Source of the DNA: an uncultured Planctomycetia bacterium
GTDB taxonomy: Bacteria; Omnitrophota; Gorgyraeia; 2-02-FULL-51-18
DNA length: 64,000 nucleotides
Assembly: GCA_964642015.1 (NCBI GenBank)
Contig: CAZXLF010000001.1
Coordinates: 116,846-180,845 of the forward strand
Direction of reading: 5' to 3'
Part shown: one piece after another, positions 1,374 to 57,515 of the stretch
Layout: each line of letters starts with the position of its first letter
How positions within the stretch are numbered: the stretch's first letter is position 1
Made by a program: the position numbers and the translations under genes
The notes under the pieces: model-generated
What the model saw: only the letters and a program-made list of their open reading frames with translations
Told to the model about the DNA's origin: nothing
Databases searched by the model: none

Positions 1374-1790
1374 CTACTCACCGATAATTTTGATTAAAAC
1401 CCTTTTATCCCGCTGTCCGTCGAATTCCGCGTAAAAGATCTGCTCCCAAGGTCCAAAATCCAATTTACCGCCGGTGATCGCGACGACGACTTCGCGTCCG
1501 AAGAGCTGGCGTTTCAAATGCGCGTCTCCGTTGTCTTCTCCGGTCTGGTGATGACGGTATTTTTTTACATCGTACGGCGCGATCTTTTCCAGAAATTCAT
1601 CAAAATCCTGAATTAAACCACGCTCATCGTCATTGATATAACAACTCGCCGTGATGTGCATTGGATTCACAAGCACTAGTCCTTCCTTGATGCCGGACTT
1701 GCGGATCGCCGCTTCGACTTGAGGCGTGATATTGAGATATTCGCGCTTGGTTTTGGTGTGGATGGTTAAAGTTTCGCGGTGAGATTTCAA
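1374..1790 (-). CDS. YjbQ/UPF0047-family protein (secondary thiamine-phosphate synthase-like)
   Basis: 138 aa with [14 protein letters not shown] and [13 protein letters not shown] motifs characteristic of UPF0047. It lies immediately downstream (minus strand) of the FNR-like gene with a 1-nt gap. Confidence 0.8.
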
Positions 1791-1791
1791 T

Positions 1792-2511
1792 TTATGTGAA
1801 CTGTTCGAAATGGATCCGCTCTTTCGGAATATTCATCTCCAAAAGCGCCGCTTTCAGCTGCTGACACATTGGCACGAGTCCGCAGCCGTAAAAATCATTA
1901 CCTTCTGTTTTTCCTGAAAATTCCCGTTTGACGATCTCTTGCACATAAGCCGTTTCGCCTTTCCAGTTCGTACCGCGGCTGATGGTCGGGACGAAATGGA
2001 AATTGGGATATTTTTTGAGAAGTGCTTGCCACTCGTCATTATAGAGGATATCGGTTTCGTAGCGGTTGCCGAAGATGAGCCAGATATTTTTTGAAAAACC
2101 TTTTTCGTAAAGATTTTTGATCATGCCGCGCAAAGGTGCTATGCCGGTACCGGTCCCGACGAAGATCAAATTTTCCTGCCAGGGCTCACGTACCGTAAAA
2201 ACACCGTAGGGAAGACTTGTGTGGATCACGTTACCTTCTTTTAATCCAAAAAACCAAGTGGACACAAAACCGCCTTCGACGAGTTTAATGCAGAGCTCGA
2301 TCTGGTTTTTTTCTTTCGCCAGCGACGGCGAAGAGGCGATCGAGTAAGATTTTTTGTGCGGTTTACCTTCTTTTTCGAGATGCACCTGAAGGAATTGTCC
2401 CGCGATGAAGCTGGTATCCGCTTCTTTTGGGTAATCCAGCACGAAATGTTTTACAGTGCTCGACAACGAAATGATCTTTGAAAGCTTTGCGTCGTAGAAT
2501 CTTGCGGGCAT
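1792..2511 (-). CDS. ferredoxin-NADP reductase-like FAD/NAD(P)-binding oxidoreductase
   Basis: 239 aa. It has an RxYSxxS-type FAD motif (KKSYSIASS) and the NAD(P) motif GTGIAP, followed by a CG dipeptide near the C-terminus. Confidence 0.75.
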
Positions 2512-2543
2512 AAGTTTCCTCTGGTTAGCGCATTATACCTATA

Positions 2544-5500
2544 TCAGGCGTCATAGTTCAAATTCGGCGCAAGCCAGCGCTCGACGGTTTTTACATCCAT
2601 GCCTTTGCGTTTGGCATAATCGGCGACCTGGTCTTTTTCAATCTTGCCGACTGAGAAATATTTGGCCTGCGGATGCGCAAAGTAAAGCCCGCTCACGGCC
2701 GCGGCCGGATACATCGCGAAACTTTCGGTCAACGTGATCTTTGCGTAGCGCTCCACATGAAGCAGATCGAACAGGATCCGCTTCTCCGTGTGGTCAGGGC
2801 AGGCGGGATAACCTGGCGCGGGACGGATACCGCGATATTTCTCCCGGATCAGGTCTTCGTTGGTCAGCGCTTCGGTTTTCGCGTAGCCCCAGAATTCTTT
2901 GCGTACCCGTTCATGCAGTCTTTCGGCGAATGCCTCAGCGAGGCGGTCGGCCAGAGCTTTCACCATGATTGAATGGTAATCGTCGTGTTCTTTTTCAAAT
3001 TTGCGCACGAGCGGCTCGATATGGATGCCGGTCGTGACACCAAAAGCGCCCAGATAATCCTTGATGCCGGATTCTTTCGGCGCGACAAAATCGGCCAGCG
3101 CGAAATTAAAATCGTCTTCTCCTTTAAGTGTCTGCTGTCTCAATGTATGGAATACCGCGAGAAGTTTTTTTCTTGTCTCGTCGGTATATACTTCAATATC
3201 GTCGCCGACACTGTTGGCCGGAAAAAGGCCGAGAACGCCTTTGGCGGTCAGAAGTTTTTCATGCACGATCTTTTTTAGCAGTATTTGCGCGTCATCGAAT
3301 AATTTCTTGGCTGTTTCACCGACTTTTTTATCCTGAAAGATAGTCGGGTAGCGTCCGCGAAGTTCCCACGTGTGAAAGAAAGGGGACCAGTCGATCTTTT
3401 GCGCGAGCTCCTCAAGAGGGAATTCGTCGAACGGCTTGATCCCTGTCACAGAAGGCGTTGTGATCGATACGTTTTTCCAATCGCTTTTGAATTTATTTTT
3501 CCGCGCGTTCTCGATCGTGACGAAACGTGCCTGCGAACCGCGGCCTTTTTGTTCTTCGCGGATCTTTTCATATTCGATCTTTTTGGCTTGAACGATATCC
3601 TTTTTGAGGGACGGATTAATTAATTGGCCCGCGATGCCCACGCAGCGCGATGCATCAAGCACGTGGATTGCCGGTTGGCTGTAAGCGGGTGCGATCTTTA
3701 CGGCCGTATGTGCGACCGAAGTCGTGGCTCCGCCGATCAAAAGGGGAATAGTGAATTTTTCGCGTTCCATTTCTTTTGCGACGTGCACCATTTCATCAAG
3801 GCTGGGCGTAATGAGTCCGCTCAAGCCGATGAGATCGGCTTTTTTCTCGCGAGCCGTTTCCAATATTTTTTCGCAAGGCGTCATGACGCCGAGATCGATG
3901 ACTTCGTAGTTGTTACACCCAAGCACAACGCCGACGATATTTTTTCCGATGTCATGCACGTCGCCTTTGACGGTAGCCAGAACGATCCTGCCGGCCGAAT
4001 GAGAGCCGCTTTGTGCTTTTTCTTTTTCAATATAGGGAGTAAGCACCGACACGGCTTTTTTCATCACGCGTGCGCTTTTTACCACCTGAGGTAAGAACAT
4101 TTTTCCGGAGCCGAACAGGTCTCCGACGATGTTCATCGCGTCCATCAGCGGTCCTTCGATGACGGCAAGCGGCTTGGGATATTTTTGGCGTGCTTCTTCC
4201 ACGTCCTGTTCAATGTGATCAGTGATACCCTGGACAAGCGCGTGTGACAAACGCTCCTCCACTGTGCCTTTGCGCCATTTCTCATCTTTGACGACGGTTT
4301 TTTTGTCGTCTTTGACGCTTTCGGCAAATTTAAGCAGACGTTCGGTTGAGTCGGGCCTGCGGTTGAGCAACACGTCTTCGACAAGCTCCAGAAGATCTTT
4401 GGGAATTTCATCATAGATCGTGACAAGACCCGCGTTCACGATGCCCATATCGAGCCCGGCTTTGATCGCGTGATAAAGGAAAGCGGAGTGCATCGCCTCG
4501 CGTATCTTATTGATGCCGCGGAATGAAAATGAAATATTGCTGATGCCGCCGCTCACATGACAACGGGGAAGTGTCGCTTTGATCTGGCGTGTCGCTTCGA
4601 TGAACTCGACCGCGTAATTGTTATGTTCTTCCATTCCGGTCGCGACGGTGAGAATGTTCGGATCAAAGATAATATCTTCCGGAGGAAAATGGACTTCTTC
4701 AGTGAGTATCTTGTAAGCGCGTGTACAGATCTCGATCTTTCTTTTGGCGGTGTCAGCCTGTCCCGTCTCGTCAAAGGCCATCACGACTGCCGCGGCGCCG
4801 TATTGTCTGATCTTTCTGGCCCGCTCTTTGAAAACCGTTTCACCTTCTTTCAGGCTGATGGAATTGACAATGCTCTTTCCTTGAGTGCATTTTAATCCCG
4901 CTTCGATCACGGACCATTTAGAAGAATCGATCATGATCGGTACCCGGGCGATGTTCGGTTCGGAGGCGATCAGATGCAGGAACTTGGTCATTGCGGCTTC
5001 GGAATCCAAAAGTCCCTCATCAAGATTGACGTCGATGATCTGCGCGCCGGCATCGACTTGCTGTTTGGCGATCGCGAGAGCGCCTTCGTAATCCTCCGAG
5101 AGGATCAGCTTTGAAAATTTCGGAGAGCCGGTGATATTCGTGCGTTCGCCGATGTTGATGAAATTTGAATTCGGACGGATCGTCAAAGGTTCTAGCCCGC
5201 TCAAGCGTGTGTAAGATTCTGGCGTTGCCAGTTTTCTCGGCGTTTTACCTTTTGCGATCTCGGCGATCTTTTTGATATGCGGCGGAGTCGTGCCGCAGCA
5301 TCCGCCGATGATGTTGATGAATCCGCTTTTGATGAAATCTTCGATGAACGCGCCCATGCTGTCTGGTGTTTGATCATATTCGCCGAATTGATTCGGAAGC
5401 CCCGCGTTCGGATAGGCGATGATCGGCACCGAAGCAATGTTCGAGAGTTCTTCAAGGTAAGGACGAAGTTCTTTGGCGCCAAGCGCACAATTCAAACCTA

Positions 5501-9580: not shown

Positions 9581-10330
9581 ATGGCCGTTTGCGGATCGTG
9601 CCATGGCAAGGGCGTGCAAGCCCAAAAAAGCGCTCTCAGCATACCTCACGTATGCGACCGATGCCACGGTACAGGAAAATTAAAACTTACCGTTGTCGAC
9701 CTGCTTCCCCAAGATCACGCCTGCTTTCTTTACGATGATCCAAAGTTTCAACTCGATACTGCAGTTACATTTTTGATAGAGGGCCTCAAGCAAAGAGAGT
9801 GCTGTTTTTATACGGCTGACGAGCATAGTATCGAAGATATAAAAGAGGCCCTGGCCAGAAATGGGATCAATGTTAAAAAACAGATCAATGATCGAGCGCT
9901 CAATCTTCTGACAAAAAAAGAGACTTATCTGGCTAACGGATACTTTGACGCTTCGGAGATGCTAAATTTTGCGAAAGATGCCGTCAAAGCAGCGACACGC
10001 GCGGGATTCCTCGCGTTCCGCGGCGCCGGTGAGATGACCTGGGCTTTGGGGGAGGAAACGGGCTGTGATCAGGTGATCCCGTATGAATTTTTGATGGACG
10101 AATATTTTCACAATGTGAAGCCCGACATTACAGCGCTATGCCAATACAATATCAAGCGTTTTTCTTCGGGCGTTGTCCAGGGCGCGATCCACACGCACAA
10201 GATCGTGGTATTGCCGGACGGCCAAGTGGTGGCCAATCCTTACTATCAGGATGATTTTCATAAAGTCCGTGACCGGGCTCATCTGGAAATAATGATGAAC
10301 CGTTTGAAGGACCTCGTTTTAAAAAATTAG
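9581..10330 (+). CDS. MEDS-domain protein with an N-terminal DnaJ-type CxxCxGxG zinc-finger pair
   Basis: It has a strong SD (gggaggg). The N-terminus carries CGSCHGKG and CDRCHGTG. Downstream, HACFLYDD...GEMTW follows the MEDS pattern (HxC..Y ... GEM.W). Confidence 0.55.
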   Translation: MAVCGSCHGKGVQAQKSALSIPHVCDRCHGTGKLKLTVVDLLPQDHACFLYDDPKFQLDTAVTFLIEGLKQRECCFYTADEHSIEDIKEALARNGINVKKQINDRALNLLTKKETYLANGYFDASEMLNFAKDAVKAATRAGFLAFRGAGEMTWALGEETGCDQVIPYEFLMDEYFHNVKPDITALCQYNIKRFSSGVVQGAIHTHKIVVLPDGQVVANPYYQDDFHKVRDRAHLEIMMNRLKDLVLKN

Positions 10331-10391
10331 CGAAAGTTTTTCTTAAAAGCCGTTTCTAAGATTCGCTATCCCGTCTTTTTTATGTTAGCAT

Positions 10392-11027
10392 ATGGCCGTT
10401 ATGATCTTCGGTGCATTCTTTGCTATCATTTTATTATTGTTTTTTTTCGTCGCGGGTTTTTTCGTCCTTGCTGTTTTTCCGGTCTGGATGCTGATCGAAT
10501 GTTTCCGCTCGCGCATACTCCCGCAGGCTATTAAACTTCTATGGGTCGTCAGCATTGTGATGGCCTGGCCTTTCGGGAGCCTGGCCTACGCTTCATTTGC
10601 TTCACATAAAAGATCGTTGGCCCGCATTTCCAATACGGTCATCATTCTTTTGATCATCAGTAGCGTTGTTTTTAGCGGAGGCATTTTTTATTTTAGGAGC
10701 GCACTCTTGCCTCAGGCGGTGGACCGGTATCAAAAGATGGAATTGAGCGGAGCCACGAAAGAGCAACAGGAGCTGATCAAAGCGGACCTTGTTGTGCTGA
10801 AGAACGAAATGCAGGCCAATTCATTTTTTTCGGTAAAATCGCTGGCTGCGCTCCAGCTTTTTGAGCTTTTTCAGTCTCTGATCATCCGTTCAAAGGTTTC
10901 TCCGGCGGAATGGGGCGATTGGACCCATCAGGTTGAGTTGAGGACATCAGTCCAAGACAAGTCGATTGCCGAATATATGAATTTATTGAGAGAAAAAACC
11001 ATCCAAAACATCCTAAAAACGTCCTAG
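10392..11027 (+). CDS. membrane protein with a PLDc_N (phospholipase-D N-terminal-like) domain
   Basis: Two TM helices. KLLWVVSIVMAWPFGSLAY matches the PLDc_N consensus (KxxW...P..G...Y). It is followed by a soluble tail of about 100 aa. Confidence 0.5.
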   Translation: MAVMIFGAFFAIILLLFFFVAGFFVLAVFPVWMLIECFRSRILPQAIKLLWVVSIVMAWPFGSLAYASFASHKRSLARISNTVIILLIISSVVFSGGIFYFRSALLPQAVDRYQKMELSGATKEQQELIKADLVVLKNEMQANSFFSVKSLAALQLFELFQSLIIRSKVSPAEWGDWTHQVELRTSVQDKSIAEYMNLLREKTIQNILKTS

Positions 11028-13637: not shown

Positions 13638-15446
13638 ATGGCTTTGCAGGAAATTTTAAATCAAACGGCGGTATTCGAAGAAAAGAGCGAACAAAAACTC
13701 TCTCCGGAGGCAGAAGCGGAGATTCGGCGATTTGACGTCGAGATCGCTCGCCTTGAAAAAGGAGAGCTTGATCCGGATGATTTCAAGAAATTCCGCCTCG
13801 AAAATGGTGTTTACGGCATTCGCGGCGCAACGGACCGGCACATGATTCGCATCAAGATCCGTTACGGGTTCATGAATCCGCTTCAGCTTGAGCGCATCGC
13901 GGACATTACGGAAAAATACGCACCGAATAAATTAGCGCACGTCACGACTCGCCAAGCCATTCAGCTTCATGAGATTAAACGCACGGACGTGCCCGCTATC
14001 TTAAGGATGTTGGCTGAAGTAGGGCTGACCAGCCGCGAAGCCTGCGGAAATACGGTCCGGAATGTGACCGCTTCTCATTATGCCGGCATTTCACCCAAGG
14101 AAGTTTTTGATGTGACACCTTATGCGGATCTTTTAAGCCTTTATTTTTTGAGAAATCCTGTTTGCCAAAATCTGCCTCGTAAATTCAAGATCGCCTTCGA
14201 AGGAAGCGCCGAAGAAGATTATGCTAAGGTAGGGATCCATGATCTCGGGTTTGTAGCGCAGAAAAAGATCGTGAACGGAAAAGAAGTGAGAGGGTTTGCT
14301 GTGTATGTCGGCGGAGGGCTTGGCAGCACGCCTTATCCGGCCCAGCTTCTCGATGAATTTTGTCCGATAGAGCTTTATTTGCCGACCGCTGAAGCGGTGA
14401 TCCGTCTTTTTGACAGGAACGGCGAGCGCAAGGACAAGAACCGTGCGCGTATTAAATATCTCGTCGCTAAATGGGGGATCGAAGTATTCCGTAAAGAATT
14501 TTTTGATGAGCGCCGTCAAGTTGTTGCGACCGGCTCAGGCAAAGAAGCATTTTGGAAACTGCGTTTTGACGAAGAGAAAGCGCCTGTTCTTAAGGAATCC
14601 GCGCCGACACAGGCGCCGGCAGTTCCTGTAGGTTTTGAAGAGTGGCTCAAATCCAATACATTTGAACAAAAGCAAAAAGGCTATTTCGCGGCGCATGTGC
14701 GCTGCCCGCTCGGTGATATCAATCCGGAACAGATGAGAAAACTTGCCAAGATCTCGCGCTTGTTCTGCGGCGGACGCATGAGAACGACGATCGCGCAAAA
14801 TATCCTGCTCCATTGGGTGCCCAAAGATTCTTTAAAGGCGCTTTATTCCCATCTTTCACAGGCAGGACTTTCGCATAGAGGTGCCAATGAGATCACGGAC
14901 ATTACGCGCTGTCCCGGTGCCGATACCTGCCAGATAGCGATCACGCATTCCAAAGGACTCGCATTTGAGATGAGCAAGCTTTTCGAAAATGGCTCCGGTC
15001 TCGGCAACGACCCGGAGTTCAAAAATATCACGATCAAGATCTCAGGCTGCACAAACTCCTGTGGTCAGCATCACATCGCGAACATCGGTTTTCATGGTGC
15101 TTCCAAGAACGTTGATTCCAAAGCCGTACCTCATTATCAATTGATGATCGGAGGCTATACGGATGTGAATGGTGTGGCGGTATTCGGCAAGCGCATCGCG
15201 CAAATTCCCGCCAAACGCACACCCGAGGCCACTCGCGCGATCCTCGAGGCTTTCAAAAAAGATAAAGGCACTCAGGAAAGCTTTGTGGAATGGTCCGGCC
15301 GTGTCGGGACCGTGAAACTCAAAGAGATCGTTGAGCCCTTTACTTCGATCCCATCGTTCGACAAAGATCCAAAGATGTACGAGGATCTTGGCGATCCCGG
15401 AAAGCTCTTCAAAGTTGAGATGGGCAAGGGCGAGTGCGCCGCTTAA
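13638..15446 (+). CDS. ferredoxin-dependent sulfite/nitrite reductase (siroheme-[4Fe-4S] hemoprotein)
   Basis: 602 aa. The cluster-binding motifs CPGADTCQ and SGCTNSCGQHHIANIGFHG are present, with full NirA/Sir-like architecture. Confidence 0.9.
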   Translation: MALQEILNQTAVFEEKSEQKLSPEAEAEIRRFDVEIARLEKGELDPDDFKKFRLENGVYGIRGATDRHMIRIKIRYGFMNPLQLERIADITEKYAPNKLAHVTTRQAIQLHEIKRTDVPAILRMLAEVGLTSREACGNTVRNVTASHYAGISPKEVFDVTPYADLLSLYFLRNPVCQNLPRKFKIAFEGSAEEDYAKVGIHDLGFVAQKKIVNGKEVRGFAVYVGGGLGSTPYPAQLLDEFCPIELYLPTAEAVIRLFDRNGERKDKNRARIKYLVAKWGIEVFRKEFFDERRQVVATGSGKEAFWKLRFDEEKAPVLKESAPTQAPAVPVGFEEWLKSNTFEQKQKGYFAAHVRCPLGDINPEQMRKLAKISRLFCGGRMRTTIAQNILLHWVPKDSLKALYSHLSQAGLSHRGANEITDITRCPGADTCQIAITHSKGLAFEMSKLFENGSGLGNDPEFKNITIKISGCTNSCGQHHIANIGFHGASKNVDSKAVPHYQLMIGGYTDVNGVAVFGKRIAQIPAKRTPEATRAILEAFKKDKGTQESFVEWSGRVGTVKLKEIVEPFTSIPSFDKDPKMYEDLGDPGKLFKVEMGKGECAA

Positions 15447-15469
15447 AAGATTCCAAGAGGAAAGCTTAA

Positions 15470-15751
15470 TTGAGACTATACCAATCTGATGCGACAGGAA
15501 ACATTAAACCAATTGAAATAGACATTCCTGAGAACGTTGTTCCCATGGCCTCGGGAAGTTATGTGACCTCACAATTACAAAATTTAAATCCTCAGGCAAT
15601 CCTTCCAATAACTACAGCAAATACAATTCAATTTGCGGCACAAGAAGCTGAGAAAGAAGGATGGAGACTTAAGAGAGTAAAACTTGGCTTAAGTTTAAAT
15701 CCCTTGAACTTTTTTAGCTTGAATCTTGAGTGGGAAAAGGATAGCTATTAG
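15470..15751 (+). CDS. hypothetical protein in a low-GC islet
   Basis: 93-aa ORF in a region of about 38% GC against a background of about 50%. No recognised motif. Confidence 0.3.
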   Translation: MRLYQSDATGNIKPIEIDIPENVVPMASGSYVTSQLQNLNPQAILPITTANTIQFAAQEAEKEGWRLKRVKLGLSLNPLNFFSLNLEWEKDSY

Positions 15752-15779
15752 GTCTAACTACGTCTCTCCTAGTTAATCA

Positions 15780-15818
15780 AAAAGAGATACATTAGTTTCT
15801 TGTGATGAAATTCTTCAC
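15780..15818. repeat. imperfect direct repeat, copy A (about 40 bp)
   Basis: aaaagagatacattagtttcttgtgatgaaattcttcac. About 31 of 40 positions match copy B at 16401-16440. Confidence 0.45.
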
Positions 15819-15875
15819 TGTATTTGCTGATGAGTTTAAATTCACTAAGGATAATTTTCAATAGTTAGGCTTACT

Positions 15876-16370
15876 ATGAATGAAGAAATTGTTTTTAAAA
15901 AAGGTTTTATCTCCGGACACGCCACTCGTAAAGGCGAGTTTAGATTCGCTAAGCTTATTAATTTTTCCGGGTATACTTTAAGGTATCCACTGCACTACAG
16001 AGGTTCCTTAACTCTTAGATTGACCGATAAATCAATTTATCTAACGTGCATGTCTTTTCCTGTATGGCAATCAACCTTATTGGAGATCACTTCGGTTAAA
16101 ATTAAACCATTATTTGCGTACGGGGCAGCTCATATAGAATCTCAGAACAATGACACAGGTTTTTTCTTTGTTACGGGTAAATTAGATCAGCTATTAGATG
16201 CTTTCAAAAAATTAAATATAAAAGTAGAATATGATCAGAAATCTTTAGAAGATTATCGAAACAGAGCCAAAATACTTTCTAATCCAATAGTCGTAGTGGT
16301 TGGTATTATTCTAGGGGCAGCTTTCATTTTATTTCTTTTTTATTTTTCTTGGCATAATACAAAGGTGTAA
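15876..16370 (+). CDS. hypothetical C-terminally membrane-anchored protein in a low-GC islet
   Basis: 164 aa with a C-terminal TM segment (IVVVVGIILGAAFILFLFYF). It is flanked by the two direct-repeat copies. Confidence 0.4.
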   Translation: MNEEIVFKKGFISGHATRKGEFRFAKLINFSGYTLRYPLHYRGSLTLRLTDKSIYLTCMSFPVWQSTLLEITSVKIKPLFAYGAAHIESQNNDTGFFFVTGKLDQLLDAFKKLNIKVEYDQKSLEDYRNRAKILSNPIVVVVGIILGAAFILFLFYFSWHNTKV

Positions 16371-16400
16371 ATCATAAACCGACCCTTATCCCTATTGACC

Positions 16401-16440
16401 AAAAGGGGACACCTTAGTTTTTCGTGATGAGATTCTTCGA
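16401..16440. repeat. imperfect direct repeat, copy B
   Basis: aaaaggggacaccttagtttttcgtgatgagattcttcga. Partner of copy A at 15780-15818. Confidence 0.45.
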
Positions 16441-16487
16441 TATGCTCAGAATGACGTTCAGGATATTTCCGCTAAAGAAAGGCGAGA

Positions 16488-17093
16488 CTAGCTCACATTT
16501 TGTACAACGTGGGAAATTTGCCTGTAGCAGTACCGGATCTCTCCGCTGAAGGAATAAAACGGCACATAGAAACTTTCAGGTAAATCACCGGCTTTCCACG
16601 GCTGTATCTGCATGGCTGAATCCAGGAGCCATGTTTGTTCCGACTTATCCACGTAGACGACCCACGCATGGAATATGCTGTCAAAAGAATGATATTTGCC
16701 GATCATGAGACTGACATTGTTATAGCCGTTCTTTTTTAGCTCCGTATAAAGCCATACTGCTTTGTCTGCGCAATTTCCGCTGCCTTTCAGACTCGTTTCT
16801 TCAGCGCTTTGCCACCGGATATTCTCAGGATTTGACACATAACGGTAGGATCGAGCGATCATAAAGAGTTCATTGGCCGATCTGGGTTTGGATTTATGGG
16901 GTTTATCGAGATTGATCTTAGACTCATTGAAAAATCCCGCGTTATCAAGCCGCTGATCGAACGGAGTTTCTGACACTAGATGGGGGGAGTATGCTAATCC
17001 ATTGGCCCACAAATTGATGCCCGGATCGAAGACAGCGCATAGGATGAAAATCACAAGGGCAAAGTATTGCGACCGCGGGAACGGATTTTTCAT
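16488..17093 (-). CDS. secreted transglutaminase-like / papain-fold cysteine peptidase domain protein
   Basis: N-terminal TM/signal segment. GNCADKAVWLY supplies the Cys, and FHAWVVYVD the His/Asp, of a transglutaminase-like catalytic triad. Confidence 0.5.
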   Translation of the reverse strand: MKNPFPRSQYFALVIFILCAVFDPGINLWANGLAYSPHLVSETPFDQRLDNAGFFNESKINLDKPHKSKPRSANELFMIARSYRYVSNPENIRWQSAEETSLKGSGNCADKAVWLYTELKKNGYNNVSLMIGKYHSFDSIFHAWVVYVDKSEQTWLLDSAMQIQPWKAGDLPESFYVPFYSFSGEIRYCYRQISHVVQNVS

Positions 17094-17236
17094 TCAAGCC
17101 TCCGAAGTTTGCGCATCATTTTAGAGTGGGCCTACATGTCACAGATCACTACGCAACATAGTATAACAGTGATAGTAAAAAGCGCATTAAATTAGGATTA
17201 ATGTTTTGTCATGTTCGCCGTAGAAAAAGTTGAACG

Positions 17237-17265
17237 TTGACAACTTTTGCTGATTAGTTTAGATT
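17237..17265 (+). promoter_or_regulatory. promoter-like element in the long thyA upstream region
   Basis: TTGACA at 17237-17242, a 17-nt spacer, then TAGATT at 17260-17265. Confidence 0.3.
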
Positions 17266-17322
17266 CCTGTTAGGAACCGTCACAAATTTTCTTTTCATTA
17301 CTTTGTTAGTCTTTGTTAAAAT

Positions 17323-17350
17323 AGCTTCATGCGAAGCTTAGTTTTTTCTT
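17323..17350 (+). terminator. hairpin plus U-tract (attenuator or sRNA terminator candidate) 60 nt upstream of thyA
   Basis: agcttc-atgc-gaagct (6-bp stem) followed by tagttttttcttt. Confidence 0.3.
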
Positions 17351-17411
17351 TAGAATTTGTTAGGATCTCCAAGAATGGCTGATGATCTTTCGTTTGTTAT
17401 AAAATAATCCC

Positions 17412-18206
17412 ATGAAACCTTACCTGGATCTGGTTCAACATATTTTGGACCACGGCACGGAAAAATCCGATCGAACAGGCACCGGCACGAAAAGCGTTTT
17501 CGGTTATCAGATGCGTTTTGACCTGTCCAAGGGGTTTCCGCTTGTCACGACAAAAAAAGTTCATCTGCGGTCTATCATCCATGAATTGCTTTGGTTTTTA
17601 AAAGGGGAGACCAATATCCAGTATCTTAAGGATAATCAGGTTTCGATATGGGACGAATGGTCTGACGCGAACGGTGATCTGGGACCTGTGTATGGCAAGC
17701 AATGGCGGCGTTGGGAAACCAAGGATGGCCGTGTGATAGATCAAGTTTCGCAAGTGGTTGAGCTGATCAAGAAGAATCCCGACAGCCGGCGCATGATCGT
17801 CAGCGCTTGGAACGTAGGCGAGCTTGACAAAATGGCGCTGATGCCTTGCCATGCACTTTTTCAATTCTATGTCGCCGGCGGAAAACTTTCCTGTCAGTTG
17901 TATCAACGAAGCGCCGATGTTTTTCTCGGTGTGCCGTTCAATATTGCGAGCTATGCGCTTCTTACTCTGATGATCGCGCAAGCGACCGGACTCGAACCCG
18001 GAGACTTCGTACACACTTTCGGGGATGCTCATATTTACGCCAATCATTTTGAACAGGCGAAACTGCAGCTTTCCCGTCTCCCAAGACCGATGCCCCAAAT
18101 GAGACTGAATCCGAATATTAAAAATATCTTTGATTTCAGATTTGAAGATTTTGAACTTTTGAATTATGATCCGTATCCGGCTATCAAGGCCCCGATCGCC
18201 GTTTAA
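17412..18206 (+). CDS. thyA: thymidylate synthase
   Basis: 264 aa with the classic ThyA sequence (DRTGTGT, active-site ALMPCHA, the C-terminus ending AIKAPIAV). Confidence 0.95.
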
Positions 18207-18680
18207 ATGATCTATCACGTCGTGGCGGTCTCCAAGAATGGCGTGATCGGAAAAGGCGGTAAATTGCCTTGGCATTTTGCGGCGGATCTGAAATTTTTTA
18301 AAAATCTCACGACCGGCCATACAGTCGTCATGGGCCGCAAAACTTTTGACAGCATTGGCAAACCCCTGCCAGATCGTGAAAATATCGTGATCAGCCACCA
18401 CGTGGATCACAAGGCGGCGGGTATAAAATTTGCAAAGAGCATTGACGAGGCGCTCGAGCGCGCTGGAAAAGGAAAAATCTTTATCATCGGCGGCGCCTCT
18501 ATTTATCGCGAAACCGCTCATTTGATCGATGGTATTTACTTGACGCGGATCGATCAAGACTATGAAGGCGACACGTTTTATTCGGGAATTCCGGATGGAT
18601 TCAGGGAAGTTTCGCGAGAAAAACTTCAGGAAAACCCGTTGATCGAGGCGTCCCTATATATCCGAGGCGTGACAATATGA
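18207..18680 (+). CDS. folA: dihydrofolate reductase
   Basis: 157 aa with VSKNGVIGKGGKLPW and VVMGRKTF motifs. Its ATG directly abuts the thyA TAA. Confidence 0.9.
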   Translation: MIYHVVAVSKNGVIGKGGKLPWHFAADLKFFKNLTTGHTVVMGRKTFDSIGKPLPDRENIVISHHVDHKAAGIKFAKSIDEALERAGKGKIFIIGGASIYRETAHLIDGIYLTRIDQDYEGDTFYSGIPDGFREVSREKLQENPLIEASLYIRGVTI

Positions 18681-18752: not shown

Positions 18753-20705
18753 ATGAGACCGGAAGATAAAAAATATATCTCAGAGAATTTCGGAAAGAAA
18801 TCCATCAAACAGATGGCTCAAGACATTCATGTCAAAGAAAGGAAAATAAGGCTGTTCCTCGAAAAAGAGGGACAAGGCCGGCCTCAGATCAAAAAAGAAA
18901 CGGTGTCAGCTCAAAGCGAAAAACAATTTCAGCAACTTCTTGTTGCGGCGGCTTTGGTGATAGCAGGCTTCATGATCTACTCTAACACGCTGCGTTCAAG
19001 TTTTCATTGGGATGATATTTCCGTCATCATCAGAAATACTTCGATCAGAAATCCGTCGAATTTCAGCGCTATCGTGAACGCGTTCAATACACGATTCATG
19101 GTTGGCCTAAGCTTGGCTTTTAATTACGCGATAGGCAAGGTGAACGTGCTTGGATATCACATATTCAATATTGCCGTTCACGTCGCTTCTGCTGTGATGA
19201 TCTACTTGCTGGTGAATATCACATTCAAAACGCCTAGGATGCGCGGAAGCGCTTTGGTGAACCACAGGAAGATTATCGCTCTGTTTTCTGCGCTTCTTTT
19301 TTTGGTTCACCCGATCCAAAGCCAGGCAGTGGATTATATTTGGCAAAGGGCGGCTTCGATGGCCGCGTTTTTTTATTTAGCTTCCATATTTTTTTATGCA
19401 AAAGCAAGGTCGGGGTCATCGTACCTTTATTATGCCGCTTCCTTAATTGCCACAGTGCTTGGAATGTTTTCGAAAGAGACGACCGTTACGATCCCTTTCG
19501 CGATCGTGGCCTATGAATTTATATTCTTTGATAGGGCAAATGGAGAAATCAAGAAAGTATTCATTACGCTTCTCGTTTTTTGCCTGACCTTGCCGATCAT
19601 CCCTCTTATGTTCACGCGTGCGAACAAGATCACTCTGGATGTGATGCGCCCTCCTACGATACAAGCGCTTCATTCCAATACGCCTGGGGCCAGGGAATCG
19701 GCAAATATCACGAGCTGGGTGACGGAAGACGTGATGAGCCGGCAAACCTACATCTTGACGCAATTCAACGTTATCCGGACCTATTTGCGTCTGATCTTTT
19801 TGCCAATTCACCAGAACCTTGATTATGATTACCCGTTGACCCATACCATAGATGTAGGCGTTCTTTTTTCGCTACTGCTTATAGCCTTGATCATTTTTCT
19901 CGCGATCAAGATTTTTTCTGTAAATCGGCTTGTCTCTTATGGCATCTTCTGGTTTTTTCTGACCTTGAGCGTTGAGTCGTTGGTCGTTCAAAATGACGTC
20001 ATCTTTGAACACAGAATGTATCTGCCTATGGTCGGCTTAGCTTTGGTTATTTCCAACGTCATGTTTCTTATTCTAAAAGATCTTAAAAAATTTATAACCG
20101 TCATGTGCGTGATCACCTTGATCTTATCTTTGGTGACGTATCGCCGGAATAATGTTTGGAAAGACGAGATATCTCTCTGGAAAGATGTGGTGGCCAAATC
20201 CCCGAATAAACCGCGCGGCTGGTACAATCTCACGCGTTTTATGGGTGAAAGCGACCCTGCACATGCGAACGAGTATTATGAAAAAGCCATCCGTTTCAAG
20301 CCGCATTCTGTCGAAGAATATAATGATCTCGCAACTATTTATTGGCATATGGGCAAGACCGAAGAGGCGATGGAGTTATATGGAAAAGTTCTGCAAAGAA
20401 GACCTGACGACGCCAAGGCGCTTTCAAATCTTGCGAACATTTATTTGGATAAAGGGGTCTATGAGAAGGCGATAGAGATGTACAAGAAGTCCATTGACAT
20501 CAATCCGACGTTGCCGGAAGTTTATAATAATCTAGGCAAGGCTTATCATTTGATCGGCAATGATCCGGAAGCGATCAGGCTGATCGAGAAAGCTATTGAA
20601 TTAAATCCAAATGATGCGGACGCCAGATATAACTTGGATCAGCTTCAAGGCCGACAAGGGGTGCCGGTTAAGGTCAAAGGAAATCCTTCTGCAGAGTCCG
20701 AATAA
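18753..20705 (+). CDS. multi-pass membrane protein with C-terminal TPR repeats (TMTC/DUF1736-like putative glycosyltransferase family)
   Basis: 650 aa with about 9-11 TM helices, followed by at least four TPR units (AKALSNLANIYLDKGVYEKAIEMY...). Confidence 0.7.
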   Translation: MRPEDKKYISENFGKKSIKQMAQDIHVKERKIRLFLEKEGQGRPQIKKETVSAQSEKQFQQLLVAAALVIAGFMIYSNTLRSSFHWDDISVIIRNTSIRNPSNFSAIVNAFNTRFMVGLSLAFNYAIGKVNVLGYHIFNIAVHVASAVMIYLLVNITFKTPRMRGSALVNHRKIIALFSALLFLVHPIQSQAVDYIWQRAASMAAFFYLASIFFYAKARSGSSYLYYAASLIATVLGMFSKETTVTIPFAIVAYEFIFFDRANGEIKKVFITLLVFCLTLPIIPLMFTRANKITLDVMRPPTIQALHSNTPGARESANITSWVTEDVMSRQTYILTQFNVIRTYLRLIFLPIHQNLDYDYPLTHTIDVGVLFSLLLIALIIFLAIKIFSVNRLVSYGIFWFFLTLSVESLVVQNDVIFEHRMYLPMVGLALVISNVMFLILKDLKKFITVMCVITLILSLVTYRRNNVWKDEISLWKDVVAKSPNKPRGWYNLTRFMGESDPAHANEYYEKAIRFKPHSVEEYNDLATIYWHMGKTEEAMELYGKVLQRRPDDAKALSNLANIYLDKGVYEKAIEMYKKSIDINPTLPEVYNNLGKAYHLIGNDPEAIRLIEKAIELNPNDADARYNLDQLQGRQGVPVKVKGNPSAESE

Positions 20706-20797: not shown

Positions 20798-21580
20798 ATG
20801 AAATTAGCGAGAATCTCTATTTTTTTGACGGCTGTTTTGGTCTTAATGTTTTCCGAAATTATATGTCATGCCAATGGGCAAGATTACTCGAACGGGGATG
20901 ATACAAATAGAAAAATTTTGAAGCAGGGCCTTTTAGGCGCAGGCACTGGTGCGATCGCCGCCGGCGCTTCAGGCGGGAACGCGGGCAAAGGTGCTTTGAT
21001 CGGTGCGGGCACCAATGTGATCGGCGGCGCGTTATTAGACACGCTGACGACACCGTCACAACCTCAGCCTCGCACGCAGTATGTTCAGCAAGCCCCTGTT
21101 CAGTATGTTCAACAGCCGGCTCCTCAGTATGTCCAGCAAGCTCCACAATATACGCAAAGCTCTTATCCGGTTCAGCCAACACCGACTTATCAGCCGGAAC
21201 CTCAGCCAGTCTATGTTCAGCAGGCACCCACTTATTACAATCCTCCGCCACCTCAGGATGATCCGACTAAGAAAATATTGAAGCAAGGTCTATTGGGCGC
21301 GGGCACAGGTGCCATTGCGGCAAGCGCATCAGGCGGGAACGCAGGCAAGGGTGCTTTGATCGGTGCCGGCACGAATGTGATCGGCGGTGCGCTTTTGGAT
21401 ACGCTGACCGGCAGCGGTTCATCTCAACCTCAGCAACCTCAAGTTGTTTATGTTCAGCAGCCTCCGCAACAACAATATCAATATCCCCAACAATCTTCTG
21501 CCAGCCAACCTCACAAGAAGATTGTCCGTAAATACGATTCCGATGGTAATGTAGTCTCTGAGGAAGAGGTTTGGGAATAA
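20798..21580 (+). CDS. secreted glycine-zipper (YMGG-like) repeat protein with a Q/P/Y-rich linker
   Basis: It has a signal peptide. Two near-identical modules read KKILKQGLLGAGTGAIAA.ASGGNAGKGALIGAGTNVIGGALLDTLT. They are separated and followed by QYVQQ/PQ-rich low-complexity stretches. Confidence 0.6.
   Translation: MKLARISIFLTAVLVLMFSEIICHANGQDYSNGDDTNRKILKQGLLGAGTGAIAAGASGGNAGKGALIGAGTNVIGGALLDTLTTPSQPQPRTQYVQQAPVQYVQQPAPQYVQQAPQYTQSSYPVQPTPTYQPEPQPVYVQQAPTYYNPPPPQDDPTKKILKQGLLGAGTGAIAASASGGNAGKGALIGAGTNVIGGALLDTLTGSGSSQPQQPQVVYVQQPPQQQYQYPQQSSASQPHKKIVRKYDSDGNVVSEEEVWE
20912..21049 (+). repeat. intragenic tandem-duplicated segment, copy 1 (about 138 bp)
   Basis: About 85% nucleotide identity with 21271-21408. 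Both copies encode the glycine-zipper module. Confidence 0.6.
21271..21408 (+). repeat. intragenic duplicated segment, copy 2
   Basis: Partner of 20912-21049. Confidence 0.6.
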
Positions 21581-52064: not shown

Positions 52065-52637
52065 ATGACGGTCTTATCAAAGAACTTGGCGGTCTTATTG
52101 GTATGTTCCATTTTCATAGTATTTTTTTCAGTAACGGAGGCGGAAGCAATGGAAAAAAGCATTCTTTCATTTAGCGCCAAAACGATGGACGGCGGCCAGC
52201 AAAATCTCGCTGACTATAGGGGAAAGGCGCTTCTTGTCGTGAACACGGCCTCACGCTGCGGTTTCACTCCGCAGTACCGGTCGCTCGAGTCGCTTTATGA
52301 AAAATACAAGGACAAAGGTTTCGAAGTGCTCGCGTTCCCTGCCAACAATTTTATGAATCAGGAGCCCGGCACAGACAAGGAGATCCGGGATTTCTGCTCG
52401 ACCAAATTCCACGTCACTTTCCCGGTATTTTCCAAGATCAGCGTGAAAGGGAAGGACATCGATCCGCTTTACCAGTACCTTACGACCGAATCAGGTTTCA
52501 ATGGCTCGATCAGCTGGAATTTTAACAAGTTCCTCGTTGGTCCGGATGGCAAAGTGGTCGCTCGATTCGGTTCTGCGGACGACCCTCTGTCAGAGAAAGT
52601 ACAGTCAAAGGTACGGGAGGTGTTGCGACTTCCATGA
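52065..52637 (+). CDS. glutathione peroxidase family protein (Cys-type), with an N-terminal signal/anchor
   Basis: 190 aa with NTASRCGFTPQY (peroxidatic Cys), plus FPANNF and WNFNKFLVG motifs. Confidence 0.9.
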   Translation: MTVLSKNLAVLLVCSIFIVFFSVTEAEAMEKSILSFSAKTMDGGQQNLADYRGKALLVVNTASRCGFTPQYRSLESLYEKYKDKGFEVLAFPANNFMNQEPGTDKEIRDFCSTKFHVTFPVFSKISVKGKDIDPLYQYLTTESGFNGSISWNFNKFLVGPDGKVVARFGSADDPLSEKVQSKVREVLRLP

Positions 52638-52999
52638 AAATGCTGAGAAAGATCCATTTGTATCTGGGCTGTCTGTTTTCTCCGATGCTTCTTTTTTTCG
52701 TGATCAGCGGATGCTGGCAGACTTTCCGGCTGAATGACGCCAAAAAAGACGGCAGTTATGCACCCCCAGAGATCATAAAAATATTATCCGCGGTCCACAC
52801 GCATGATTCGCTCGCTTGGAAAGCGCCGTCGTCGGAACCGTTCAAATTATTTGTATTGGGGATGGCAGGATCTTTTCTTATCACGGTTATTCTTGGTTTA
52901 GTCCTCGCCTTTCAAGTGTCAAAGAAAAATCCTTGGGTCGTGTGGGCTTGCCTTGTTACGGGAATTTTACTGCCGATGGTGTTTTTGAGGCTTAGTTAA
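52634..52999 (+). CDS. small membrane protein (3-4 TM)
   Basis: 121 aa. Its start overlaps the gpx stop (ATGA). Confidence 0.4.
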   Translation: MKMLRKIHLYLGCLFSPMLLFFVISGCWQTFRLNDAKKDGSYAPPEIIKILSAVHTHDSLAWKAPSSEPFKLFVLGMAGSFLITVILGLVLAFQVSKKNPWVVWACLVTGILLPMVFLRLS

Positions 53000-54142: not shown

Positions 54143-54293
54143 GTGGGTCGCACAAAAAACCGAGAAAAATTTCTGGGTCGTGCAGGCTTGCTTGGTGACG
54201 AGCGTTTTATTGCCCGCGCTGTTTTTTGAGATCAAGATAAGCATCTGCCGTCTCCGCGATTTTTTGGTGCGGAACGGTCTCCGGCGCGTGAGA

Positions 54294-55283
54294 ATGCTGA
54301 AATATATGAAAAAGACGATAGCTTTGATCTTTGTGTTCAACTTTTCTCTTGCGATCGCGCACGCCGGATCGTCGCAGGTATGGTTTTATCCGAACGGCGG
54401 GAGCAAAGATGAATTGAACCTTTTTTCGAAGCCTGATCAATGGACGAACGCCAGAAACAAGATCCAGGTCTTTGGCTTCAATGAATTTCAGCTTATCGCG
54501 GATTCATCGAACGACTGCGCCAAGACGAAATGCGGCGATAATTTCTATGAAAATTTCATGAATGTAAAAGCATTTTCACAACTAAGCGCGTGGGGAATAA
54601 AAATTTCTATAGGCGGAGGCGCTATCAAGCCATGGGATTGTACCGCGAGCGACCGCGCCAGACTTTATATCAGGAAGGCGATAGACCGGGTCGAAAAAGG
54701 CGGCGGAAAGGTGAGCTACGTCGATCTGGATGAGCCTTTGTTCAGCGCCGGAGAAAAATGCGCTCTTTCCATGGATGCGGCGGCCGCTAAGACAGCGGAT
54801 TTTATGAGGGATATCCAAACGGCTTATCCTTCCGTAGGGATAGGTGAGGATGAACCTTATCCCTCTTTTAGTGCGCAGACGATCAAGCAGTGGATCCTGG
54901 CCTTGAAGGCGAGCGGGGCGAAGCCCGCCTTTTTTCATCTGGATGTGAATCGCGCGGCCGCCGCCAAGAAGATCCCGGACACGATGGCGAATGACATCCG
55001 CGATCTCAAAGCGTTTTTTGATCAGCAAGGGATCCCGTTCGGCGTGATATTTTTCGGGCTTGGCCGTTTTGACCGCGATCAGGATTATTATAAGGATGTG
55101 ATGAGCTGGGTGAACTATGTTCATTCTGTCATCGGACGGCCGGAGCAAATCATTTTTCAGAGTTGGTGTCTCAGCTCTTCAGGGTCGAAGGATATTCCTT
55201 CCAATCTCCCTGAATCCGGACCCAACGTTTACAGTCACGCGAGGATCATTAATGATGGTTTGGCGGTGCTTCAGGCGGAATAG
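54294..55283 (+). CDS. exported hypothetical protein (possible TIM-barrel glycoside-hydrolase-like)
   Basis: Start at ATG 54294 or 54306. Signal peptide MKKTIALIFVFNFSLAIAHA. No firm motif. Confidence 0.45.
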   Translation: MLKYMKKTIALIFVFNFSLAIAHAGSSQVWFYPNGGSKDELNLFSKPDQWTNARNKIQVFGFNEFQLIADSSNDCAKTKCGDNFYENFMNVKAFSQLSAWGIKISIGGGAIKPWDCTASDRARLYIRKAIDRVEKGGGKVSYVDLDEPLFSAGEKCALSMDAAAAKTADFMRDIQTAYPSVGIGEDEPYPSFSAQTIKQWILALKASGAKPAFFHLDVNRAAAAKKIPDTMANDIRDLKAFFDQQGIPFGVIFFGLGRFDRDQDYYKDVMSWVNYVHSVIGRPEQIIFQSWCLSSSGSKDIPSNLPESGPNVYSHARIINDGLAVLQAE

Positions 55284-56765: not shown

Positions 56766-57515
56766 ATGACTAAGATACCCGAAGTTACAATACCTTCGTT
56801 AAAGAAATACATTGGATATTTAGAAAATCATCATATAGATAAATTAGTGTTGTTTCGAGGGCAACGTGAAGACAAACATTTGCTCCCAAAGATTGCTCGA
56901 ATTAAGTTAAATTATAGAAATAAAATGATTTTAGATGCAGAGCAACGTCTAATCGATGAATTCAAAAGAAAAAGTCGACCATTCCTACAAGTTACACCAA
57001 ATTCCGATTGGGATTGGCTAGCCTTGGCTCAACATCATGGGTTGGCCACAAGACTATTAGATTGGACCCAGAATCCACTAGCGGGATTATGGTTTGCAGT
57101 TAGAAAACCTCCGGAAAAAGATATTTCTGGAACCGTCAAAGATGGGGTAGTTTGGGTTTTTGAAGTCGAAAATGAAAACATCTATAAAGAAGAAGATAAC
57201 TTGAGCCCATTTAATGGAGACCGGACAATGGTTTTTCAGCCAAATCATATTTCTCCACGAATTGTAGGTCAGCAAGGATGGTTTACGGTGCATAAGTATG
57301 TTCCAAAAATAGAAAAATTCATTGCGTTTGAAATACATCTTACGTACAAGAAATTTTTAACCAAACTTATTATACCAGGAGATAAATTCTGTGAAATTAG
57401 GGAGGAATTAGATCGCTGTGGCATAAATCAAGCATCTCTTTTTCCAGATTTAGATGGTTTGTGCGCATATTTGGTATGGGACAATTCAATGTTATCTGAT
57501 GAAAAAAACATTTAA
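56766..57515 (+). CDS. FRG-domain protein
   Basis: 249 aa in a low-GC segment (about 37% GC). VLFRGQRED carries the eponymous FRG motif. HGLATRLLDWTQNPLAGLWFA is the conserved downstream block. Confidence 0.6.
   Translation: MTKIPEVTIPSLKKYIGYLENHHIDKLVLFRGQREDKHLLPKIARIKLNYRNKMILDAEQRLIDEFKRKSRPFLQVTPNSDWDWLALAQHHGLATRLLDWTQNPLAGLWFAVRKPPEKDISGTVKDGVVWVFEVENENIYKEEDNLSPFNGDRTMVFQPNHISPRIVGQQGWFTVHKYVPKIEKFIAFEIHLTYKKFLTKLIIPGDKFCEIREELDRCGINQASLFPDLDGLCAYLVWDNSMLSDEKNI

Follow-up and report, generated by a model that had tools for sequence, protein, structure and literature searches.

Non-autonomous integrated elements flanked by attachment (att) sites are known, for example the cis-mobilizable elements of streptococci, and toxin-antitoxin cassettes flanked by direct repeats were reportedly described by Pandey and Gerdes in 2005. 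In polymorphic toxin loci, it is established that the immunity gene lies directly after the toxin C-terminal domain. The mark of an integron attC site is a palindrome, imperfect and 57-141 nt long, that contains the paired boxes R''/L'' and L'/R'; an integron further has an adjacent gene for the tyrosine recombinase IntI, and an integron-type cassette array without an integrase (CALIN) is recognized by at least two attC sites within 4 kb. In the Bacteroidales, rAID-1 loci consist of a gene for a XerD-like recombinase followed by co-oriented, short, low-GC orphan immunity genes with repetitive intergenic sequences (10.1101/471110; PMC12247911), the criterion being at least two co-oriented downstream genes with a GC content of 41% or less (10.1101/471110). 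Here, we describe an AT-rich islet between a sulfite reductase gene and a thymidylate synthase gene in a 64,000-nucleotide stretch of DNA from an uncultured bacterium (the window; positions refer to this whole stretch). The islet is real and of an ordinary sort, acquired horizontally at a junction where insertions recur, and around its gene orf164 lies a duplicated 49-nt sequence, R1, that is either a duplicated recombination target or a duplicated leader. The principal features are as follows.

13638..15446, + strand: SiR, a sulfite/nitrite reductase gene matching Pfam NIR_SIR (2.5e-50) and NIR_SIR_ferr; it is conserved and forms the left border of a variable junction.
15447..16390, no strand: the AT-rich islet body, with a GC content of 34.4% (window, 47.1%); none of the related loci has it.
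15470..15751, + strand: orf93, an open reading frame (ORF) of 93 amino acids (aa) with a TTG start and 38% GC; coding status uncertain; called as a gene in locus L001.
15768..15816, + strand: R1a, the left copy of the repeat, 29% GC, beginning 16 nt past the orf93 stop codon.
15876..16370, + strand: orf164, 164 aa, 33% GC, with a pleckstrin homology (PH)-like domain and a C-terminal transmembrane helix; a putative orphan Rhs-type immunity protein.
16391..16438, + strand: R1b, the right copy of the repeat, 42% GC, beginning 20 nt past the orf164 stop codon, at the right edge of the AT-rich body.
16488..17093, - strand: TG201, a convergent gene of 201 aa for a secreted transglutaminase-like/LapG-like cysteine peptidase; G+C content at third codon positions (GC3) 0.53, codon adaptation index (CAI) 0.69.
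17412..18680, + strand: thyA-folA, matched in L001 by Pfam Thymidylat_synt and DHFR_1; likewise conserved, it borders the junction on the right.

Like rAID-1, the islet contains short co-oriented ORFs of low GC content (orf93 and orf164, both on the + strand and both under the 41% limit), and a repetitive intergenic sequence, with R1 following each of the two ORFs. Its content may also correspond, two relatives of orf164 being placed where polymorphic toxin loci have their immunity gene. Unlike in rAID-1, no XerD-like tyrosine recombinase gene was found among the window ORFs scanned, the upstream gene being that of the sulfite reductase; the islet further differs in several ways: it comprises two ORFs and two repeat copies only, and it belongs to the phylum Omnitrophota and occupies a junction of housekeeping genes rather than a mobile element. 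Since no recombinase was found and only two units are present, the islet should not be classed as a rAID.

R1 was delimited by Smith-Waterman alignment as a direct repeat of 49 columns (15768-15816 against 16391-16438) in which 39 columns match, 9 are mismatched, and one is a 1-nt indel (39/48 identical); a repeat finder returned a version of 44 nt with 80% identity at an offset of 622 nt. Its ungapped score of 21.5 was the best in the interval 15447-16487, for which 300 dinucleotide-preserving shuffles gave a mean of 11.0 (standard deviation, 1.16; maximum, 15.5), and its local-alignment z-score was 12.9. The imperfect repeats of about 40 nt that an earlier reading of the sequence alone (the sequence-only reading) had reported around the 164-aa gene were therefore borne out, being slightly longer than first described and far above the shuffles. 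The whole window holds four direct repeats that score at least 17 within 3 kb, R1 among them, and the other three, not all of which were checked, appear to lie in coding sequence. The edges of R1 are sharp, identity falling from 80% to background on either side; no part of orf164 is duplicated alongside it, and it has no coding capacity in any frame. Eight of the nine substitutions between the copies are transitions, and in eight of the nine differences the A/T base belongs to R1a and the G/C base to R1b, so that each copy matches the composition of its own flank, R1a that of the islet and R1b that of the host.

Searches for further copies of R1 were negative. Allowing up to three mismatches, its 25-nt core matched no site in the window beyond R1a and R1b, and an nhmmer profile of the pair found no third copy in the window or in loci L001-L084. 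Scans of the public JGI metagenomes and of IMG/VR for R1 gave 4 and 10 pattern matches, all with unrelated flanks and none of them true copies. The sequence-only reading had considered that the repeat might be a promoter element standing before unrelated genes; within the 64 kb, only the two copies exist, with no third before orf93, thyA, or any other gene.

The position of the islet was assessed by comparison with related genomes. The SiR protein places the window in the uncultured Candidatus Omnitrophota, where the closest relatives are 74-87% identical at the amino acid level, the 87% identical SiR being that of ENA contig ERZ27296333; no genome of the same species was found. Nineteen relatives' loci contained DNA downstream of SiR, and in 18 of them a thymidylate synthase gene follows, either thyX (L002-L007, L009-L011, L017, L020, and L082-L084) or, as in the window, thyA-folA (L008 and L012-L014, directly after SiR). 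In 13 relatives (13/19 loci; 13 of the 18 with a thymidylate synthase gene), the distance from SiR to thyX or thyA is only -9 to +81 nt, whereas the corresponding interval in the window is 1965 nt long and holds three genes. The segment 15447-17411 is therefore an insertion, and no relative among the loci compared carries the islet itself. An absence of 15.8-16.4 kb from relatives had been proposed as a check on its acquisition; the acquisition stands, and the absent piece is larger, namely, 15447-17411 with the peptidase gene included. The other six relatives have different inserts, or gaps shorter than that of the window, at the same junction.

L002: 894-nt gap, a Zeta_toxin-family protein and a 57-aa ORF (9782-10536).
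L005: 777-nt gap, the same pair as in L002 and 60% identical to it (1867-2647).
L003: 1798-nt gap, a pilin-like protein (N_methyl, ComP_DUS) and a DUF3050 protein.
L046: at least 2.4 kb, an unassigned 293-aa ORF and a split, frameshifted N6_N4 DNA methylase (1424-3243).
L010: 214-nt gap, no assigned genes.
L020: 152-nt gap, no assigned genes.

The SiR-thymidylate synthase junction is thus a recurrent insertion hot spot in this Omnitrophota clade, with differing cargo. Two further observations were made at the same place. The gene at the right border is either thyX, a 520-aa Thy1-family gene that overlaps the SiR stop codon, or thyA-folA in related Omnitrophota, an in-place swap of two non-homologous thymidylate synthase systems within one clade. 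In L013, the SiR gene has a TGA at about 9770-9790, where the others have a C-terminal Cys codon (GKGE*AA* versus GKGECAA*). A selenocysteine codon, premature termination, or an error of sequencing could each account for it.

The composition of the islet is foreign to the window. The stretch 15501-16500, at 35.0% GC, is the lowest 1-kb stretch of the window, which upholds the earlier description of the interval as distinctly AT-rich. Profiling of GC content and codon usage, a check that had been suggested with it, separated the genes into two groups. For orf93 and orf164, GC3 was 0.32 and 0.28 and CAI 0.59 and 0.60, the latter values being equal to the out-of-frame background; host genes have a GC3 of 0.40-0.60 and a CAI of 0.67-0.74. 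The codon usage of orf93 and orf164 is foreign, and that of TG201 is host-like. Both orf93 and orf164 were called as genes in an independent assembly. The islet sequence is on record in at least three contigs, and the islet is therefore no assembly artifact; DNA was read for two of these, a 28.9-kb Logan contig and a 1.3-kb contig of a second run, with 2 single-nucleotide polymorphisms, none within the repeats. In phage and plasmid collections, neither a DNA search with 15447-17411 nor tblastn with orf164 produced a match, and no relative was found in IMG/VR. Taken as a cassette-like acquisition, as the sequence-only reading had it, the islet has held up: it is an insertion relative to 13/19 relatives, its codon usage is foreign, and two analogous cassettes occur in related genomes. 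A second AT-rich gene of the window, at 56766-57515 on the + strand (35% GC; GC3, 0.28; CAI, 0.59), forms another small foreign islet; it matches the PADLOC candidate defense family PDC-S15 (E = 4e-87), the Pfam FRG domain (7e-27), and phrog_4962, and it has no copies of R1 or R2, the promoter-like module described below, nearby.

We next consider the gene bracketed by the repeat. The sequence-only reading had described two ORFs, of 93 and 164 aa, without recognizable motifs. Both ORFs exist, but orf164 has a family, a PH-like fold, and a context like that of Rhs immunity genes. The N-terminal domain of the protein meets the definition of the PH-like fold, a seven-stranded beta-sandwich capped by a C-terminal helix. 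A word-indexed protein search returned only orf164 itself, and a scan of JGI metagenomes with the orf164 alignment for loci of the family returned nothing; an exhaustive HMMER search, in answer to the suggestion that homologues be sought, recovered 13 distant relatives of 24-47% identity, mostly 142-165 aa long and commonly with a hydrophobic C-terminal helix. GC content is about 33% in each of the three family members for which DNA is available and 35-39% in the contigs that carry them. In the contig of the closest relative, P0124 (JGI 3300075153, 1913 nt), there are three co-oriented small ORFs separated by spacers of 115 and 104 nt (124 and 117 nt in the window), with a 92-aa ORF lying 115 nt upstream of P0124 and a 119-aa ORF 104 nt past it.

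The neighbors of two other relatives point to a function. In contig L103, the ORF before the orf164 relative (P0129) contains the end of an Rhs core (TIGR03696, 61.3 bits; cutoff, 32.5) followed by a variable domain of about 140 aa, and P0129 begins 8 nt past the stop codon of this Rhs ORF. In L085, an ORF fragment that is 59% identical to the variable domain of L103 (E = 9e-21) precedes the relative P0125, which begins 12 nt past it. These two members of the orf164 family are thus found in the position of an immunity gene, directly after an Rhs C-terminal domain. In the window, no rhs gene, core-encoding remnant, or recognizable toxin fragment adjoins orf164, and because two of its relatives follow an Rhs C-terminal domain, orf164 is probably an orphan Rhs-type immunity gene, as judged from the position of these relatives. 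It has no match to a described immunity family, and together with its relatives it defines a new small protein family with a PH-like domain and a membrane anchor, a candidate Rhs immunity protein. Orphan Rhs and contact-dependent growth inhibition (CDI) toxin-immunity modules (PMC3150448, PMC3967940, PMC2935791) are similar in that an immunity-type gene is detached from the full-length toxin gene, and the orf164 relatives 8-12 nt after an Rhs C-terminal domain fit the same pattern. The window differs from those modules in having neither rhs gene nor core remnant nor recognizable toxin fragment, and in that R1 is non-coding and contains no piece of an rhs core.

Upstream of orf164, R1a is followed by a promoter-like module, part of which recurs before thyA.

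15814..15843, + strand: R2a, a promoter-like module, TTCACT-17-TAAATT, 33 nt upstream of the orf164 ATG, its hexamers read from the sequence.
17237..17266, + strand: the predicted thyA promoter, TTGACA-17-TAGATT (10/12), containing R2b (17246-17266).

The hexamers of R2a score 8/12, under the threshold of the promoter scanner. Its core, TTTGCTGATGAGTTTAAATTC (15823-15843), which starts six bases past R1a, recurs as R2b with 19/21 identical positions (z = 5.3), and R2b makes up the spacer and the -10 element of the predicted thyA promoter. The latter is the best sigma-70-like site of the region and lies 146 nt upstream of thyA, which needs a promoter of its own because the convergent peptidase gene separates it from SiR. 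From these matches, orf164 and thyA seem to use related promoters. That R1b and R2b had once been contiguous and were split by insertion of the peptidase gene was considered and not adopted, the flanks showing no supporting similarity. In L103, a stretch at 1190-1225, 146 nt 3' of the orf164-family gene, aligns with the core of R1a and the start of R2a (33/39 columns, of which 5 are gap positions). Its z of 3.8 is also reached by the best of 300 shuffles, and it is not significant by nhmmer; it may reflect chance or a remote copy of this leader.

Cassettes bracketed by comparable repeats were then sought in 1.095 Mb of DNA (81 fetched loci and the window) by a scan for direct repeats with at least 32/40 identical positions and a spacing of 250-3000 nt, of which those with at least one copy outside long ORFs were kept. 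Only three repeats passed, namely, R1 of the window and one each in L003 and L010. The 60-nt repeat of L003 (9840-9899 and 10361-10418; 55/58 identical, a 2-nt indel, spacing 521 nt) stands on both sides of the pilin-like gene at the SiR-thyX junction; a start codon directly follows each copy, and the second begins 19 nt past the stop codon of the pilin-like gene, as R1b begins 20 nt past that of orf164. Beside this second copy, L003 also carries a 14-nt tandem duplication, ATGGTTGAAGAAAA, which repeats the start of the DUF3050 gene. The repeat of L010, of about 65 nt (1657-1721 and 2330-2394; about 83% identical, spacing 673 nt), brackets a 673-nt BrnT toxin cassette on the minus strand and is made of the 3' end of the upstream gene (106 aa), namely, its last approximately 20 codons with the stop codon. 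Six of the approximately nine differences between its copies are synonymous, which marks them as diverged alleles of a single gene end and not as an in-place duplication. The duplicated sequence is thus of a different kind in each case, a gene 3' end in L010, a 5' leader in L003, and an intergenic sequence in the window, which argues for a shared insertion process rather than a shared function. All three resemble att-flanked elements and repeat-flanked toxin-antitoxin cassettes in having imperfect direct repeats of 45-70 nt around short cargo without a recombinase, and L010 does so further in that its repeat restores the 3' end of the target gene. Unlike att-flanked elements, they have no known cognate integrase, the target in the window is intergenic, and recombination is here deduced from sequence.

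We favor, tentatively and at a little under an even chance, a reading in which the SiR-thymidylate synthase junction took up about 2 kb of accessory DNA, orf164 is an orphan immunity gene, and R1 is the duplicated recombination target of a 622-nt cassette. Among its grounds are the insertion mode shared by the three cases and the AT/GC asymmetry of the R1 copies, which suit the insertion of a cassette carrying its own version of the target. We infer the following course of events. The junction, as a recurrent insertion site, would have received the accessory DNA, of which the AT-rich left half (orf93 and orf164) would derive from an AT-rich source. The orf164 cassette would comprise 622 nt, with the promoter-like R2a followed by orf164. 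A small circular or looped-out DNA bearing orf164 and its own version of the target would have recombined with the resident copy in the manner of Campbell, either by host homologous recombination or by an integrase encoded elsewhere, so that R1a, on the left, would be the AT-rich copy that was imported, and R1b, on the right, the resident one with more GC. As a membrane-anchored PH-like protein, orf164 would protect the cell against the toxin of a neighbor. The sequence-only reading had offered two alternatives, an insertion with a duplicated target or attachment site and a duplicated promoter or operator; the acquisition that both implied has stood, with the recombination target now preferred and the leader as its main rival.

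Several observations weigh against this reading. No Pfam domain of an integrase, transposase, or other recombinase was found among the called genes about 10 kb on either side (5876-26370), nor was a recombinase found among 20 further window ORFs of 168-421 aa, and R1 can therefore be regarded only as a putative attachment site. No genome was seen with orf93, R1, and TG201 but without orf164, as would be expected of the empty site of the cassette. To the left of R1a, orf93 is as AT-rich as orf164, so that R1a stands at no clean boundary between host and foreign DNA, and at least two events or a larger import would be needed. R1a also lies directly upstream of the promoter-like module, which suits a regulatory role equally well. 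Other relatives of orf164 have unrelated neighbors, for example, a signal peptidase gene in L086. Finally, the enrichment of repeat-bracketed cassettes at the junction amounts to three cases; for either of the remaining two repeats to lie in an insert at this junction by chance, we estimate a probability of about 0.01-0.08 once the selection of the window is taken into account.

A duplicated leader is possible, though we hold it to be rather doubtful. Here, R1, together with R2, would be the regulatory leader (an operator or UP element and a promoter) of each imported small gene, and R1b would be the leader of a following gene since lost or displaced by the peptidase gene, the repeat being maintained by selection and not left as a scar. 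In line with this, R1a ends inside the -35-like hexamer of R2a, 33 nt before the orf164 ATG; the R2a core is nearly identical to the best predicted promoter of the region; the L003 repeat reaches the start codons of two successive genes; and the closest orf164 relative is one of three co-oriented small ORFs with spacers close in length to those of the window. However, R1b is followed by no acceptable -10 element and by nothing that codes; other genes in the 64 kb, orf93 and thyA included, have no copy before them; and the L010 repeat is the 3' end of a gene. All nine R1 substitutions fit a weak two-hairpin RNA on the + strand, but its consensus folding energy of -4.35 kcal/mol is negligible. 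The asymmetry between an AT-rich and a GC-rich copy would also not be expected of two equally constrained sequences in one genome.

The same asymmetry bears on another account, a local in-place tandem duplication by unequal crossing-over or slippage whose second unit was mostly deleted, leaving a functionless pair. The copies lie near each other, share one orientation, and occur at this locus alone; other small duplications are found nearby, GAGTTTARATTC being present three times in 1.5 kb, and L003 has its 14-nt tandem. The directional differences, AT in R1a and GC in R1b, nevertheless tell against it, as do the sharp drop from 80% identity to background at the repeat edges and the lack of any duplicated part of orf164, and we consider this account improbable. 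Even less credit can be given to a CALIN with R1 as part of attC sites, which is largely refuted. Shared with integron cassettes are small units of a single gene, 520-670 nt long, that a repeated sequence follows and that have no recombinase inside. A spacer of about 120 nt follows each + strand ORF, and the one after orf93 opens with GTCTAAC (RYYYAAC) at the stop codon and closes with GTTAGGC (GTTRRRY) 5 nt before the orf164 ATG, ends that form a 9-bp stem. Neither spacer, however, is an imperfect hairpin, since as single-stranded DNA they fold at -6 to -7.7 kcal/mol (z of +0.5 to +1.1 against shuffles, both strands). The second spacer lacks both boxes; R1 itself has no hairpin and no conserved R/L boxes; conservation is confined to the center of the spacers and not the ends, the opposite of attC; and no integron integrase (IntI) was found among the called genes of 5876-26370 and the 20 further ORFs.

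Other identities for R1 were tried and rejected. As the start of a lost downstream gene, it was compared with the ORF after P0125 in L085, and DNA and protein alignments stayed at the level of shuffles (z of at most 0.8). ARAGORN finds no tRNA or transfer-messenger RNA gene in the window of which R1 could be the end, which speaks against a genomic island integrated at such a gene, and R1 matches no Rfam family. A conserved RNA structure is too weak, with consensus energies of -4.35 and -1.35 kcal/mol from two sequences only. The template and variable repeats of a diversity-generating retroelement do not fit differences that are not adenine-specific and include 8/9 transitions running in both directions. 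A transposon or insertion sequence was dismissed, as no transposase was found among the called genes of 5876-26370, the 622-nt unit does not end in terminal inverted repeats, and the duplication measures 49 nt rather than 2-14 bp.

The remaining genes of the inserted segment are less well characterized. No match to orf93 was found in Pfam, PHROG, PADLOC, or NCBIfam, and the idea that it is a remnant of an Rhs toxin domain was rejected, as it does not align with the Rhs toxin domain of L103. The convergent secreted transglutaminase-like peptidase previously noted downstream of the islet exists as a convergent 201-aa gene, but its family matches are only weak (Pfam, E of about 0.05; NCBIfam LapG, E = 0.052; PDB 4u65, E = 0.26). 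TG201 is a real gene; its one homologue is 61% identical, with the ribosome-binding site, the start, and the upstream segment conserved. Despite its host-like codons, TG201 is absent from relatives at the SiR-thymidylate synthase junction.

Two other duplications were seen in the window. A direct repeat of 64 nt (52923-52986 and 54163-54226; offset, 1240 nt) is situated close to where neighboring ORFs end and start (52634-52999 and 54180-55283) and may mark paralogous gene ends. In a gene for a glycine-zipper-like protein, 3' of a gene for a TPR protein (18753-20705), about 150 nt are directly duplicated (20896-21048 and 21256-21408); the duplication is also present in the orthologues of many relatives, with a spacing of 294-360 nt.

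It is conceivable, though in our estimate a long shot, that Omnitrophota have a cassette-exchange system of their own, in which one- or two-gene units of 0.5-0.7 kb, with immunity, pilin, or toxin-antitoxin cargo, would move together with a 50-70-nt copy of their target and without a recombinase in cis, the SiR-thymidylate synthase junction serving as a dedicated acceptor site. If true, such a system would be a functional analogue of integrons or rAID with different sites and enzymes. The islet is a well-bounded example of the entry of tiny accessory cassettes into a streamlined, uncultured phylum, at a housekeeping-gene junction where the cargo differs by species and includes pilin, defense, immunity-type, and toxin-antitoxin genes. 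With it, a small family not described before, in which a PH-like domain is joined to a membrane anchor, can be put forward as a candidate Rhs immunity protein. Should cassettes set between repeats prove to be general, they would point to a simple way for candidate phyla to exchange cassettes with little use of recombinases.

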